The notes: a model not told the origin generated them from the sequence alone. Shown: positions 16,048 through 20,673, counted from the first letter of the stretch. The stretch is 36,754 nucleotides of DNA from Halobacteriaceae archaeon (GCA_042216675.1 JBDGTS010000042.1:1-36754); one strand, 5' to 3'. Made by a program: numbers and translations.

Positions 16048-16695
16048 TTACCTCTGACCGTCGCCGGGCGTCTCGTGACGCGTCAGGTCGAGCGTCTCGG
16101 GGTCGAGCGCGTAGTAGGCCTCCCACGCCGGCGCGAGCGAGACGACGCGGGTGTCGCCGAACGTCGTCTCGGCGTGTTCGTGGTGGTGACCGACGAGACA
16201 GAGGTCAGGGCGCACGGACTGGAGGACGTCGTCGACGTGCTTGCACCCGACGCCGTACTCCTCGGCGACGGGGAGGCCGTGGGGCGCCTCGTGCGCCAGA
16301 AACACGTCCACGTCGAGGTCCTTCGCCCGTTCCACGTCGTCGCGGACGAAGTGGCGGCGACGGCCGCCAGCGAGTTCCGATCGGTCGCAGTCGAAGCGAG
16401 TCGGCGCGTAGTTGCCCGAGAGGCCGCCGACCCGGAGGCCGTCCACCTCGGCGCTGGTGCTGTGAAGCAGGTGGACGTTCGACGCCTCGGGTGGGGTGTG
16501 GCCCTCCCTGAGCGCCTCGACGACGTCGAAGTCCTCGTTGTTGCCGGCGATGAAGTAGGTTGGAATCGGCACGTCGTAGTGAAGCAGGTCCCCGGCCTGA
16601 AGCGCCACGTCGGCGTCGGCGTCCCGGTAGGCCGAGAGCAGGGCCTCCCGGCGTGGCGCGTCGTCGGCGTGTGCGTCCCCGAGGACCAAGACCAT
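16048..16695 (-). CDS. Metallophosphoesterase
   Basis: GDAH, AGD, GNNE, HEAP and VGHHH motifs; start MVLVLGDAH (alternative start 16701). Confidence 0.88.
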   Translation of the reverse strand: MVLVLGDAHADDAPRREALLSAYRDADADVALQAGDLLHYDVPIPTYFIAGNNEDFDVVEALREGHTPPEASNVHLLHSTSAEVDGLRVGGLSGNYAPTRFDCDRSELAGGRRRHFVRDDVERAKDLDVDVFLAHEAPHGLPVAEEYGVGCKHVDDVLQSVRPDLCLVGHHHEHAETTFGDTRVVSLAPAWEAYYALDPETLDLTRHETPGDGQR

Positions 16696-16741
16696 ACCCA
16701 TCCGCCAGCCGCCGACGACATAAGCCCGGCGGGGGGCCTCC

Positions 16742-16754
16742 GATAAACCTAAAT
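16742..16754 (+). promoter_or_regulatory. BRE/TATA promoter for the dap operon leader
   Basis: gataaa-CCTAAAT with the box starting 30 nt before ATG 16778, the same spacing as CCTAAAC (28325) to the folP ATG (28355). Confidence 0.6.
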
Positions 16755-16777
16755 CCCTCGGGGACGGGCGTTCTCCC

Positions 16778-16867
16778 ATGGTTCGCGTCGCGGCGAACGT
16801 CGGCCGGGCGGTCGATGCACCCAGCGACGCGTCCGCTTTCTCCGGCGGTAAGCGCGGGCCGGCGTGA
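16778..16867 (+). CDS. Putative leader peptide (uORF) of the dap/lys operon, 29 aa
   Basis: MVRVAANVGRAVDAPSDASAFSGGKRGPA*; ATG at the leaderless position behind the TATA box; single Lys codon near the end. Confidence 0.5.
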   Translation: MVRVAANVGRAVDAPSDASAFSGGKRGPA

Positions 16868-16950
16868 GGGCTCGGTGCGGGGGTGGCGCCCCGTTCCGGG
16901 TCCGGGCCGGTCCGCGAGCACCGCCGACGACTACCCACCCCAGTACACAC

Positions 16951-17853
16951 ATGACACGCAACGCCACCGACCTGTTCCACGGCGTCCACCCGGCCATCGC
17001 GACGCCGTTCGCCGACGACGGGAGTATCGACCACGACCAACTCGCCGCCGACGCCCGCCGCCTCGAAGCGGCCGGCGTGGACGGCATCGTCCCCGCCGGG
17101 TCGACCGGCGAGAGTGCGACGATGAGCCACGACGAACACGTCGAGGTCGTCGAGACAGTCGTCGAGGCCGTCGAGGACGTCCCGGTCATCGCGGGCACCG
17201 GGTCGAACAACACCCGGGAGGCGCTCTCGCTCTCTCAGCGGGCGGCCGACGCGGGCGCCGACGCACTCCTCCTCATCTCGCCGTACTACAACAAGCCCGA
17301 ACCCGAGGGGATGGAGCGTCACTTCCGGCGGGTCGCAGACGCCGTGGACCTACCCCAAATCGTCTACAACGTCCCCTCGCGGACCGGGCGCTCCATCGAC
17401 GCCGACACCACCGTCTCGCTGGCGGCCCACGAGAACGTCGTCGGCTACAAGGCCGCCTCGGGGGACCTCGGCCTCGTCAGCGAAATCTGTGAGCGCACCC
17501 GCGACGAGGAGTTCGCCGTCCTCTCCGGCGACGACGGCCTCACGCTCCCCATCCTGAGCGTCGGGGGCGTCGGCGCCATCAGCGTCGCCGCGAACGTCGA
17601 ACCCGAGCGCACCTGCGCGATGGTCGGCGCCGCTCTCGGCGACGACTACGGGCGGGCGCGGGAGATTCACCACGAACTCGGGCCGCTGGTGCGAGCGCTG
17701 TTCACCGAGACGAACCCCATCCCGGTCAAGGAGGCGCTGGCGCTCCGGGGCCACCACGACACCGTGCATCTCCGAGACCCCCTCTCGCGTCTCTCCGAGG
17801 CGAATCGGGAACGACTACGTGCCGCGCTGACCGAACTGGAGGCGGACCGATGA
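16951..17853 (+). CDS. dapA: 4-hydroxy-tetrahydrodipicolinate synthase
   Basis: GSTGES, PYYNKP, YNVPSRTG, GYKAASG and TNPIPVK motifs. Confidence 0.95.
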   Translation: MTRNATDLFHGVHPAIATPFADDGSIDHDQLAADARRLEAAGVDGIVPAGSTGESATMSHDEHVEVVETVVEAVEDVPVIAGTGSNNTREALSLSQRAADAGADALLLISPYYNKPEPEGMERHFRRVADAVDLPQIVYNVPSRTGRSIDADTTVSLAAHENVVGYKAASGDLGLVSEICERTRDEEFAVLSGDDGLTLPILSVGGVGAISVAANVEPERTCAMVGAALGDDYGRAREIHHELGPLVRALFTETNPIPVKEALALRGHHDTVHLRDPLSRLSEANRERLRAALTELEADR

Positions 17854-18611
17854 AACTGGCAGTCACCGGTGCGACGGGACGCATGGGGCGGGAAGTCATC
17901 GCGGCGGCCCACGAACGCGGGGACGAGGTCGCCGTGGCCATCAACCGCGACCCGACGGACGAGACAGTCGAGGGCGTCGACGTCAAGCCGGCGGCGGACC
18001 TCGAAGCTCTGCTCTCGAAGCGGGACGTGAACGCGCTCGTGGACTTCACCGGGCCGGCGAGTTCGCTGGAGTACGTCGACGCGTGCGCCGCGACGGACAC
18101 CACCGCCGTCGTCGGGACGACGGGTTTCGACGAGAGCGACGAGGCGGCGCTCCGCGAGTACGCGACCGAAATCCCCCTGCTGCGGGCCGCGAACTTCGCA
18201 CGCGGCGTGCAGGCGCTCCAGCAAGCCGTCGCCGAAGCCGTCGAGGCGCTCCCCGGCTACGACGTGGAACTCACCGAGACCCACCACAACGCCAAGCGCG
18301 ACGCCCCCAGCGGCACCGCGAAGGAACTGCTCGCCACCGTCGAGAGCCACCGCGACAGCGGCGAACAGGTCCACGGCCGCGAGGGCGAGGCGCCCCGCAC
18401 CGAGACGGAAATCGGCGTCCACGCCCGCCGCGCGGGCGACGTGACCGGCGAGCACGAGATTCTGCTCGCCGACAACCACGAGGTGCTGACGCTGACCCAC
18501 CGCGCGGAGTCCCGCGGGGTGTTCGCGGCCGGCGCTCTCGACGCGGCGGCGTGGCTTGCGGGCAGAGACCACGGCTACTATACCTTCGCTGACGTAGTGG
18601 GCGACACATGA
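17850..18611 (+). CDS. dapB: 4-hydroxy-tetrahydrodipicolinate reductase
   Basis: GATGRMG, GTTG and ETHHNAKRDAPSGTA motifs. Confidence 0.95.
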   Translation: MKLAVTGATGRMGREVIAAAHERGDEVAVAINRDPTDETVEGVDVKPAADLEALLSKRDVNALVDFTGPASSLEYVDACAATDTTAVVGTTGFDESDEAALREYATEIPLLRAANFARGVQALQQAVAEAVEALPGYDVELTETHHNAKRDAPSGTAKELLATVESHRDSGEQVHGREGEAPRTETEIGVHARRAGDVTGEHEILLADNHEVLTLTHRAESRGVFAAGALDAAAWLAGRDHGYYTFADVVGDT

Positions 18612-19441
18612 GCCTGAAGAGCGACGTGAAGTCGCTGTGGGAGCGCTACGAGGAGGACCGGGTCGACGCCGAGTCCGCTCGACCGGGTGACCTCGACGTA
18701 CTCGACGCGTTCCTCGACGACCTCGAGGCCGGCGAGGTGCGCGCCGCGACGAAAGAGGACGGCGAGTGGATCGCCAAGAAATGGGTGAAGCGAGGCATTT
18801 TGCTGAACTTCTCGCTTCGGGAGACGGCGGCCCGCGAGTACGGCGACGTGCGCTACCACGATGTGCTTCCGCTCCGCGACACGGACGACCTCGCGGACCG
18901 CGGCACGCGCAACACGCCGGATGGCACCGCCATCCGCCGGGGGGCCTATCTCGGGAGCGACTGCATCATGATGTCCCCCTCGTTCGTCAACATCGGCGCC
19001 CACGTCGGCGACGGGACGCTGGTGGACTCCTGTGACGTGGTGGGGTCCTGCGCGCAGATCGGCGAGAACGTGAAACTCGGCGCGAACACGGTCATCGGCG
19101 GCGTCCTCGAACCCGTCGAGAGCGCGCCGGTCGTCGTCGAGGACGACGTGGACCTCGGTGCCGGCTGTCGGGTCACCTCCGGCTTCGTCGTCGGCGAGGG
19201 CTCCGTCGTCGCGGAGAACACCCTGCTCACGCCGCGCATCCCCATCTACGACCTCGTGGACGAGGAGATTCGCTACGGCGAACTGCCGCCCGAGCGCCGC
19301 GCCTTCGCCCGCTACGTCGAGTCGAGCGTCAGCGACCACGACCTGTTGCCCGGCGCGGCGTACAAGCCCGCCGTCGTCGCGATGGACGTGGAGGCAGACA
19401 CGCTTGACGCGACCGAACGCGAGCAGGCGCTCCGGGAATGA
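18608..19441 (+). CDS. dapD: Tetrahydrodipicolinate N-succinyltransferase
   Basis: WVKRGILLNF, hexapeptide repeats, VGSCAQIG, IGGVLEP. Confidence 0.93.
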   Translation: MSLKSDVKSLWERYEEDRVDAESARPGDLDVLDAFLDDLEAGEVRAATKEDGEWIAKKWVKRGILLNFSLRETAAREYGDVRYHDVLPLRDTDDLADRGTRNTPDGTAIRRGAYLGSDCIMMSPSFVNIGAHVGDGTLVDSCDVVGSCAQIGENVKLGANTVIGGVLEPVESAPVVVEDDVDLGAGCRVTSGFVVGEGSVVAENTLLTPRIPIYDLVDEEIRYGELPPERRAFARYVESSVSDHDLLPGAAYKPAVVAMDVEADTLDATEREQALRE

Positions 19442-20673
19442 GCGCCGACTCGCCCCTCGTCCGGCGCGTGACGGACTGGGACTTCGACGAACTCGCGGAC
19501 CTCGCCTTCGAGTTCGGGACGCCCCTCTACGTCCTCGACCCCGAGCGGGTGCGGGCGAACTACCGTCGCTTCGCCGACGCGTTTCCCGAGGCCGAGGTGA
19601 TGTACGCGGCGAAGGCCCACACCGGGCAGGCGGTCCTCGAAGCCCTGCTGGACGCCGGTGCGACCATCGAGTGCGCCGCGCGGGGCGAACTCCAGCGGGC
19701 AGTCGAGGCGGGCGCGGACCCCGACACGCTCCAGTACACGGCCGTCAACCCGCCGGACGCCGACCTCGACTACGCGGTCGAACTGGCCGCTGAGCATCCG
19801 GGTCTGACCGTCACCGGCGGTGCGCGAGACACCTTCGACCGCCTCGAAGAACGCGGCTACGACGGCCGCGTCGCCATCCGCATCAATCCCGGCATCGGCA
19901 CCGGCCACCACGAGAAGGTGGCGACGGGGAAGGACGCGAAGTTCGGCATCCCCTACGACGAGGTGCCCGCTCTCGCCGACGACCTCCGGGAGCGCTTCGA
20001 CCTCGTGGGCATCCACGCCCACGCCGGGTCCGGCGTCCTCCACGACGACTTGGCCGACCACTGCCGCGCCATCGCGAAAGTTGCCGACGTGGCCCGCGAA
20101 GTCGGGGACGAGAGCCTCGAATTCGTGGACTTCGGCGGCGGCTTCGGCGTCCCCTACCGGCCCGAGGAGGAGCCACTGGACATGGAGCAAGTCGCCGAGC
20201 AAGTCCGGGGGGCAATCGGTGACCTCGCGGCGACCCCGAAGTTCGAACCGGGGCGCTACGTGGTCGCCGACGCCGAGGTCATCCTCACGGAGGTGAACAC
20301 GGTGAAGGAGACGCCCGCCACCACCGTCGTCGGCGTGGACGCGTCGCTGGCGACGCTCATCCGCCCGGCGATGTTCGACGCCTACCACCCGATGGCGAAC
20401 GTGACGGCGCCCGACCGCGCGGAGGAACCCGTCTCGGTGGGCGGCCCCTGCTGTACGAGCGCCGACGTGTTCTGCACGGACCGGCCGCTCCCCGAACCCG
20501 CGCGGGGCGACGTGCTGGCAATCGGCAACGCCGGCGCGTACGGCTACGAACTCGCGAACCAGTTCCACTCCCAGCCGCGACCCGCCGAAGTCGCACTCGA
20601 AGACGGCGAAGCCCGCGTCGTCCGGCGACGGGAGACGATGGCCGACGTGACCCGCGTCGAACGGGAGCGATGA
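19438..20673 (+). CDS. lysA: Diaminopimelate decarboxylase (atypical active-site residues)
   Basis: GTPLYV, YAAKAH (PLP Lys), KFG, HAHAGS, DFGGG, EPGR and GAYG motifs; located in the dap operon. Confidence 0.9.
   Translation: MSADSPLVRRVTDWDFDELADLAFEFGTPLYVLDPERVRANYRRFADAFPEAEVMYAAKAHTGQAVLEALLDAGATIECAARGELQRAVEAGADPDTLQYTAVNPPDADLDYAVELAAEHPGLTVTGGARDTFDRLEERGYDGRVAIRINPGIGTGHHEKVATGKDAKFGIPYDEVPALADDLRERFDLVGIHAHAGSGVLHDDLADHCRAIAKVADVAREVGDESLEFVDFGGGFGVPYRPEEEPLDMEQVAEQVRGAIGDLAATPKFEPGRYVVADAEVILTEVNTVKETPATTVVGVDASLATLIRPAMFDAYHPMANVTAPDRAEEPVSVGGPCCTSADVFCTDRPLPEPARGDVLAIGNAGAYGYELANQFHSQPRPAEVALEDGEARVVRRRETMADVTRVERER

Follow-up and report, generated by a model that had tools for sequence, protein, structure and literature searches.

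The 36,754 nt contig JBDGTS010000042.1 of a Halobacteriaceae archaeon (GCA_042216675.1), referred to in its entirety as the window, contains a dapA-dapB-dapD-lysA operon preceded by a short open reading frame (ORF) and a hairpin. With a probability of roughly 0.6, the region between positions 16,742 and 16,950 is the 5' leader of this operon and functions as a ribosome-mediated, lysine-sensing leader-peptide attenuator. A translation-coupled lysine attenuator had been suggested here in a preliminary description of the sequence, and the suggestion gains support from the conservation of the element, from the position of the transcription start site (TSS) in a homologue and from ribosome footprints on the homologous ORF. 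The argument is built on the conservation of the leader anatomy, its linkage to the operon, the coding signature of the ORF, its enrichment for Lys and for the AAA codon, and the covariation of the hairpin, each of which is observed across the haloarchaeal loci compared.

According to the proposed mechanism, the first base of a short leaderless ORF, around 28 nt past a TATA box, would also be that of the transcript. The ribosome would read approximately 27 codons, with between one and three for Lys among the last five or so; the rare AAA is the usual form, and Lys and Arg often alternate. The stop codon would lie 1-4 nt 5' of a hairpin, P1, and the segment running from the Lys/Arg codons to the stop could pair with sequence 3' of P1, such that this second pairing, P0, and P1 would form a single extended stem. 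With lysyl-tRNA in ample supply, the ribosome would get to the stop codon, melt the lower stem and depart, after which P0-P1 would fold; when it is scarce, the ribosome would stall on the Lys codons with its front edge abutting the hairpin and the 5' strand of P0 occupied. These two states would set the share of transcripts that continue as usable dap mRNA, as opposed to a short leader RNA ending before the dapA AUG. The stalling at Lys codons, the role of P0 and P1 as the switch, and the direction and nature of the output step are parts of this scheme that we infer.

Conservation and coding signature of the leader

The components described previously can all be read in the window: a CCTAAAT box 30 nt before an ATG, which opens a 29-codon ORF ending FSGGKRGPA and containing a single Lys codon (AAG, 16850-16852). 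Likewise, no TATA-like box or AT-rich hexamer is present at the leaderless distance of 24-33 nt 5' of the dapA ATG (16918-16927 reads gcaccgccga). This ATG begins at position 16951 and not, as had been stated, at 16952. A search for dapA in 31 related genomes identified 27 orthologous loci, 25 of which have the same series of features within the 200 nt 5' of dapA: an AT-rich box, a start codon about 30 nt further on, a short ORF ending in Lys and Arg codons, a stop, a hairpin with the consensus GCUCG-nn-GCGGG-loop-CCCCGU-nn-CGGGCC, and a C/A-rich run. The exceptions, L026 and L027, encode the most divergent DapA proteins (approximately 57% identity) and have no match to the covariance model described below. 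The series was also found at all 12 named haloarchaeal loci inspected, which include representatives of Halopenitus, Halobellus, Halorubrum, Salinadaptatus, Halococcus, Haladaptatus and Halovenus, as well as metagenome-assembled genomes.

A covariance model built from 37 sequences, R1, matches 143 of 151 genomes sampled from across the Halobacteria, essentially once in each and in 57 of 58 genera, although the genomes in this and the other counts are related rather than independent, meaning the counts are not probabilities and overstate the statistical weight. Three of the eight genomes missed by R1 were recovered in a laxer search, and two others have no dapA orthologue either (threshold E <= 1e-60). 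In a sixth, a diverged, low-GC copy (L248) was found by eye approximately 150-270 nt 5' of dapA; this variant has AAG Lys codons in the sequence KHKRKR, seven more codons before the stop, an upper stem of CAGA/UCUG and a U4 tract after the hairpin. The last two missed genomes both belong to family f12 and have a divergent dapA with no element: at these loci (L026 and L252), dapA (57% identity) lies directly 3' of another gene and has its own AT-rich box, ACTTATACC. This implies that the Halobacteria include at least one lineage in which dapA is controlled differently.

The element is tightly linked to the operon, as dapA lies downstream of the R1 match in 171 of the 172 loci fetched, and none of 68 dapA loci from outside the haloarchaea matches R1 at E <= 1. 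The only credible match in the genome of the window is that at 16824-16911, which has the lowest model score of any scored locus (41.5 bits); a second match (E 0.09) falls inside a coding region and was discarded as noise, and a weak second match in another genome (L244) has no dapA near it. Hence the ORF, the TATA-like box and the hairpin constitute a single element, conserved far beyond chance, and the short upstream ORF (uORF), the position of its Lys codons and the covarying stems are kept across the Halobacteria, as the preliminary description had anticipated for a genuine attenuator. The spacer between the hairpin and dapA has a median length of 65 nt. At three loci from Halopenitus and Halobellus (L031, L032 and L040) the hairpin is more than 200 nt from dapA (region 220-255 nt 5' of the gene), and the spacer is long, repetitive and C/A/G-rich, with CGACC/GAUCGA-like units. 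At outgroup loci from methanogens and their relatives (L045-L051), no leader element is present and a short gene starting MGIKP(S/T)YIK, possibly that for ribosomal protein S17e, is found directly 5' of dapA.

The leader family comprises 160 distinct peptides. Their median length is 27 codons, and they begin with ATG (93), GTG (65) or TTG (2). The hexamer 24-33 nt 5' of the chosen start has at least four A/T positions out of six in all 160 cases, and at least five in 132. A stop codon is present no more than 30 nt 5' of the lower stem at 165 of 168 loci, and the frame of this stop is the unique best reader of AAA and AAG codons at 142 of the 165, being tied in 17 cases (in runs of A) and different in six. 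Candidate starts picked solely by distance, as an ATG or GTG 27-33 nt after an AT-rich hexamer, lie predominantly in the frame of the stop (134 of 186, compared to 39 and 13 in the other two frames), and an open, in-frame start is available at 124 of the 126 loci with any candidate. At seven loci (L007, L115, L116, L117, L197, L200 and L202), the Lys frame runs through the 5' arm of the hairpin to a UAG in the conserved loop (GUAGCG); these comprise four of the six frame-discordant loci and the three without a proximal stop. A ribosome reading this frame would have to open the hairpin in order to terminate.

On the other side of the hairpin, the distance to the dapA ATG falls into all three frames (60, 57 and 48 of 165 loci), and at only 92 of the 165 does the open dapA frame extend as far 5' as the hairpin. 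The absence of a fixed frame implies that the stretch downstream of the hairpin is not coding, and on these grounds an N-terminal extension of DapA from the GTG at 16864 was rejected. In the window, the dapA frame is open as far 5' as this GTG, which overlaps the leader stop (GTGA) and has the appearance of a termination-reinitiation site.

The only conserved part of the peptide is its C-terminus, which takes the form F/L-x-K-(R)-K-R-x-stop, and the remainder varies freely across the 160 sequences. Such a pattern would be expected of a cis-acting leader rather than of a functional small protein. Of the last ten residues, 19.6% are Lys, whereas the figure is 0.5% for the remainder of the leader and 0.9% for 39,716 dapA codons; at least one Lys is found in the last ten residues of 157 of the 160 leaders, with two or three in 139 and none in three. 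The choice of codon is equally distinctive, with a ratio of AAA to AAG of 285:44 in the leaders (87% AAA) and 19:357 in dapA (5% AAA), while CGT accounts for 30% of Arg codons in the leaders and 4% in dapA. Classical attenuators prefer the codons of starvation-sensitive isoacceptors, and the bias towards AAA fits with such a preference. Furthermore, the last Lys codon is three or four codons 5' of the stop in 140 of the 160 leaders, and the stop ends 1-4 nt 5' of the stem in 125. With this spacing, a ribosome whose A site holds the last Lys codon would reach only as far as the stop codon, leaving the hairpin intact, and one at the stop codon would cover the lower stem.

Structure of the leader RNA and anatomy of the window

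The two stems of P1 are supported by covariation in an alignment of 94 distinct sequences, which was fitted to the model and is biased towards it. Paired positions are complementary in 92.6% of cells, as opposed to 38-55% when the partners are slid relative to one another, and compensatory changes are found at eight of 11 pairs; changes on both sides of a pair number 78, relative to 25 in shuffles, and none of 500 shuffles reaches the observed value. A plain MAFFT alignment folded with RNAalifold recovers the same two stems, with compensation at four of ten pairs, and lineages missed by the model exhibit further exchanges of whole stem sequences (GCCGG/CCGGU and CAGA/UCUG). The upper stem is nearly invariant, and the 9-nt loop contains UGGC, UAGC or UGAC at 104, 50 and 7 of 165 loci, respectively. 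A T-box-like pairing of a UGGN loop with the NCCA end of tRNA was rejected on the basis of the latter two groups and of the lack of any specifier-like element or Rfam match. A cmscan search of 16300-17400 against Rfam (E <= 10) returned only chance matches to Xoo5 and mir-9460, neither of which lies in the leader or on its strand.

Minimum free energy (MFE) folding of the window predicts that P1 is extended by P0, in which the codons for SGGKRGPA and the stop pair with the sequence 3' of the hairpin. The fold proposed in the preliminary description is retained in part: cggtgc (16873-78) and gcaccg (16918-23) are complementary and enclose the cgggg/ccccg hairpin (16878-82/16889-93), but the outer pairing is absent from both the MFE and the consensus folds. 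Pairing was also assessed through the complementarity of matched relative to swapped segments, using eight leader segments, and hence 28 segment pairs, from 146 loci. As a positive control, the arms of P1 gave z = -1.30. A 5' hairpin formed by the first 30 nt of the ORF and its middle, which recalls a pause hairpin, scored similarly (z = -1.22), and P0, represented by the segment from the Lys/Arg codons to the stop and the first 30 nt past the hairpin, reached z = -0.65 (-0.59 in a separate matched-versus-swapped test).

The run between P0 and dapA is C/A-rich and unpaired in the fold, as previously described, and the 30 nt immediately 5' of the dapA ATG average 32.5% A, 46% C, 14% G and 7% T over 165 loci. 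Sequestration of the dapA start was rejected: this region is C/A-rich and unpaired in folds, and the last 40 nt before dapA, together with its first 37 nt, have no specific complementarity to any leader segment (strongest mean z = -0.27). A function of P1 as an intrinsic terminator, acting together with a U-tract, was also rejected, as few loci have a U-tract and RNA depth at the L131 locus described below is steady past the hairpin.

The positions of the features in the window are given in the table. The leader RNA (183 nt) folds better than 197 of 200 shuffled sequences (z = -2.4). From dapA through the region 17850..20673, which holds dapB, dapD and the lysA-like gene, each stop codon overlaps the following start codon, judging from ORF coordinates and Pfam matches. 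Divergently oriented from the leader, and sharing an 81-nt promoter region with it, is a minus-strand ORF (16205-16696, ATG at 16696) whose product begins MVLVLGDAHADD and has no Pfam match at E <= 0.001.

Table. Features of the dapA leader and operon in the window
Feature	Position	Strand	Description
TATA-like box CCTAAAT	16748..16754	+	Putative leader promoter, 30 nt 5' of the leader ATG (16778-16780); read from sequence
Leader ORF	16778..16867	+	29 codons and TGA, MVRVAANVGRAVDAPSDASAFSGGKRGPA, ending FSGGKRGPA; predicted to be leaderless; translation of sequence
Predicted 5' hairpin within leader ORF	16780..16834	+	MFE fold; duplex test of first 30 nt against mid-ORF, 146 loci
Match to covariance model R1 (end of leader ORF and hairpin)	16824..16911	+	E 1.1e-5, 41.5 bits
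P0, 5' strand (Lys/Arg codons to stop)	16844..16867	+	Predicted partner 16903-16926; duplex -44.3 kcal/mol in the window
Lys-Arg codons AAG CGC	16850..16855	+	Presumed sensing site, 5 codons 5' of the stop
Hairpin P1, conserved, two stems	16869..16902	+	Lower stem 16869-74/16897-902, upper stem 16877-81/16890-94, loop with GUGGCG
P0, 3' strand	16903..16926	+	Predicted from MFE fold and duplex tests
C/A-rich, G-poor linker up to dapA ATG	16927..16950	+	Unpaired in fold
dapA (4-hydroxy-tetrahydrodipicolinate synthase)	16951..17853	+	First gene of the operon; Pfam DHDPS, E 9e-88
dapB	17850-18611	+	Pfam DapB_N/DapB_C
dapD	18608-19441	+	Pfam THDPS_N_2/Hexapep
lysA-like decarboxylase	19438-20673	+	Pfam Orn_Arg_deC_N/Orn_DAP_Arg_deC

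Transcription and ribosome occupancy of the homologous leader

Published data are available for Haloferax volcanii, in which dapA is HVO_1101 (PMC8305020). Differential RNA sequencing (dRNA-seq; supplement of PMC4983044) places a strong TSS at 1006790 on the reverse strand, with a coverage of 854.6 and a TATA box centred at -28; its promoter score is stringent, and it is assigned to a 'previously known RNA', HVO_1101s. The sequence listed upstream of this TSS ends on the first G of a GTG that opens a 28-residue ORF, VNDATRPSQVTTPSTASRAAFFSKKRAY; transcription therefore starts on the first base of the ORF, as the attenuator proposal had called for, and the only other sense-strand TSS nearby is weak (coverage 17.8) and internal to HVO_1101. 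The same study lists 16 uORFs, among which HVO_1101 is not included. Two of its published uORFs, of 23 and 26 codons, lie in the long 5' untranslated regions of HVO_A0127 (a tryptophan-tRNA ligase gene) and HVO_2948 (pheS), and these may be sensors of the same kind. A transcript extending over 1004090-1006782 in mixed RNA-seq data joins the leader to dapA-dapD (PMC6490895 supplement).

The 28-residue ORF is also listed in the supplement of a ribosome profiling (Ribo-seq) study (PMC10117724), which records footprints on it; profiling of this kind had been proposed as a check. The trios of values in this table were read as translation efficiency (TE), footprint reads per kilobase per million (RPKM) and RNA RPKM, since dividing the second trio by the third gives the first. 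Footprint RPKM on the leader ORF is 310, 139 and 532, with RNA RPKM of 712, 668 and 888. The stretch 1006655-1006738, which covers the last 35 nt of the ORF and 49 nt beyond its stop, has footprint values of 64, 35 and 124 and RNA values of 336, 475 and 610, such that footprints are four- to five-fold lower where the stretch overlaps the ORF end and passes the stop than on the ORF itself. For dapB, the corresponding values are 101, 112 and 101 for footprints and 18, 106 and 68 for RNA. The conserved frame, stop and start of the leader ORF likewise speak for its translation.

At a further locus, L131, the leader peptide is identical to the published H. volcanii ORF. Four raw RNA-seq runs from unknown growth conditions were analysed over positions 1200-1700 of this locus, on the dapA strand; one (X21) is dominated by short inserts and another (X24) is a poly(A)-labelled library. 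Coverage begins at about 1625-1633 and stays on a plateau over the ORF and the hairpin and through the greater part of the linker. Depth in the leader is far greater than that where it joins dapA. From bin 1438-54 to bin 1421-37, which flank and include the AUG (1430-1432), depth drops 2.4- to 3-fold in three runs and 1.8-fold in X24. The 3' ends of fragments cluster at 1432-1440, 2-8 nt 5' of the AUG, and are followed by a valley and then a ramp within dapA. Hence a leader RNA of approximately 195 nt, ending just 5' of the AUG, accumulates. Either of two processes would fit the valley: termination within the C/A-rich tract that depends on a factor, or endonucleolytic processing, which would leave the dapA mRNA leaderless. 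The ratio of depth in dapA (1200-1250) to that in the leader (1472-1573) is approximately 0.10, 0.78, 0.43 and 1.9 in the four runs, a variation that is suggestive only. A second cluster of 3' ends is found at 1344-1346, about 87 nt into dapA, in X22 and X23, and in X22 antisense depth rises across 1336-1386.

A leaderless TSS, co-transcription with the operon, footprints on the ORF and an excess of leader RNA that varies in its ratio to dapA are thus observed in the homologue; for the window, the same behaviour is predicted from its sequence. Neither the range 10066xx-10067xx nor HVO_1101 has an entry in the available part of a Term-seq supplement (PMC7237163), the study having covered only regions downstream of annotated genes, and HVO_1101 is not matched in the available part of a supplement of processing sites (PMC8303175), where tags follow the HVO_RS format and the HVO_ form may not occur.

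The attenuator reading weighed against its alternatives

Several observations weigh against a lysine-sensing attenuator. In addition to the relatedness of the genomes, the window leader is an atypically weak member of its family, having a single, common AAG codon as well as the lowest score. The bias towards AAA and CGT could equally be a constraint at the level of RNA, imposed by pairing of AAACGY with CGUUU in the 3' strand of P0. No mutually exclusive antiterminator pairing stood out among the 28 segment pairs at 146 loci, and runs of at least four T within 25 nt, as would be needed for a U-tract terminator, occur at only 22 of 165 loci and not in the window. The conservation of the loop sequence is not accounted for by stalling. 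In H. volcanii, the ORF has a low TE (0.21-0.60) and ranks 7996th in DeepRibo, with a score of -1.69 (PMC10117724), and at L131 depth holds past the hairpin and falls only about 70 nt later, at a valley that fits processing as well as termination. Finally, it is from sequence signatures that we infer the link between the element and a response to lysine.

Among the alternatives, the one that survives best, though itself rather unlikely, is that the hairpin with its conserved loop is the true sensor, recognising a protein or a small ligand in the manner of a riboswitch, with the ORF translated incidentally or only serving to deliver or clear ribosomes. The retention of the loop sequence and of an almost invariant upper stem, neither of which is required by stalling, argues for such a role. 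However, it leaves the reading frame, the position of the stop, the leaderless start and the 20-fold enrichment for Lys unexplained, and the hairpin is just 34 nt long and resembles no Rfam family beyond the two chance matches.

Less probable still is that the leader is a constitutive module for stability or processing, cut before the AUG such that the dapA mRNA becomes leaderless and the detached RNA persists as a stable by-product, no amino acid being sensed. The valley at the L131 AUG, the 3' ends at -2 to -8 and the ramp within dapA are all consistent with this, and PMC8303175 reports that haloarchaeal processing sites concentrate near start codons. Such a module would not explain the enrichment for Lys, the bias towards AAA or the fixed spacing between stop and hairpin; furthermore, the ratio of dapA to leader differs 19-fold between runs, and the element is found solely at the lysine operon, once per genome.

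An independent gene beside dapA, encoding either a trans-acting small RNA (sRNA), HVO_1101s, or a small basic protein, is improbable. Its attractions are the assignment of the TSS to a previously known RNA (PMC4983044) and the far greater abundance of leader RNA relative to dap mRNA, but it is difficult to reconcile with the strict link to dapA, including the absence of the element from two genomes without a dapA orthologue, with the continuous transcript into dapA-dapD and the lack of a promoter-like box at dapA, or with conservation that is limited to the C-terminal K/R motif, the usual pattern for cis-acting leaders. There is almost no likelihood that the ORF is open by chance in GC-rich DNA, or that it forms an N-terminal extension of DapA: in sequence with this GC content, long open frames arise frequently, and the dapA frame is open to GTG 16864, but the frame tests contradict a chance ORF and the distribution of hairpin-to-ATG distances between frames contradicts an extension.

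The dap leader can also be compared with known systems. The bacterial leader-peptide attenuators trpL, hisL, thrL, leuL and pheL have codons for the end product near the end of the ORF, adjoining helices and an excess of short leader RNA; we know of no classical leader peptide for lysine. The dap leader resembles this type in being a short ORF in the leader of a biosynthetic operon, with cognate codons near its end and helices overlapping or adjoining it, and in the excess of short leader RNA over operon mRNA. It differs in being archaeal and leaderless, in having only one to three cognate codons, in lacking any alternative terminator and antiterminator that could be found and, in most cases, a U-tract, and in the leader RNA at L131 ending some 70 nt past the hairpin. 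The element is therefore classed here as working like a leader-peptide attenuator, and not as a member of the bacterial type, because neither a U-tract terminator hairpin nor an evident antiterminator is present. The L-box lysine riboswitch (Rfam RF00168) is likewise a cis-acting leader RNA before lysine biosynthesis genes, but the dap leader has no Rfam match and consists of a 34-nt hairpin and a probably translated ORF rather than a five-helix aptamer.

Factor-dependent attenuators of the tnaC/Rho type have a leader ORF, a C-rich spacer and distant RNA ends. The dap leader shares the ORF followed by a C-rich, G-poor, unstructured spacer, and its RNA ends far 3' of the ORF; unlike these systems, its host is an archaeon, and Archaea have no Rho. 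A role here for aCPSF1/FttA is conjecture. A tentative and rather doubtful elaboration of the attenuator reading is that its output is factor-dependent 3'-end formation or cleavage by aCPSF1/FttA in the C/A-rich tract before the dapA AUG, and that it represents the first archaeal amino-acid attenuator run by the ribosome, present class-wide in the Halobacteria. Such an output would have parallels in polarity of the Rho type, or in cleavage of the CPSF73 type 3' of a stem-loop, and the choice would be between a dead-end leader RNA of approximately 195 nt and dap mRNA, possibly leaderless.

The closest published analogue found is the polycysteine sORF (small ORF) of mycobacteria: these leaderless sORFs are cysteine-responsive attenuators, in which a stalled ribosome is proposed to block mRNA structure (bioRxiv 10.1101/834739). 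Both they and the dap leader are the leaderless first cistron of a biosynthetic operon and contain codons for the amino acid of the pathway. The dap leader is unlike them in having no specific pairing in the last 40 nt before, or the first 37 nt of, dapA, and in that the RNA level itself falls at the dapA junction.

Full-text searches returned no description of a lysine leader peptide or a dapA leader in haloarchaea, although subscription-only literature may hold more, and the name HVO_1101s was not matched in a search of full-text literature. The H. volcanii papers list individual pieces, the TSS as that of an sRNA and the ORF as a low-ranked DeepRibo prediction, without connecting them.

Leader-peptide attenuation is a textbook bacterial mechanism that needs coupled transcription and translation, and to our knowledge its use by archaea is not established. 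The sensory signature of the dap leader, in which rare Lys codons keep a fixed spacing to a covarying hairpin, is present in H. volcanii, for which genetics, Ribo-seq and dRNA-seq already exist, making the question directly testable. If the attenuator reading is correct, it would explain the abundant RNA annotated as an sRNA beside dapA and would provide a natural lysine-responsive switch for haloarchaeal engineering. It would also point to a sensory role for further leaderless short ORFs that precede biosynthetic or tRNA-ligase genes.

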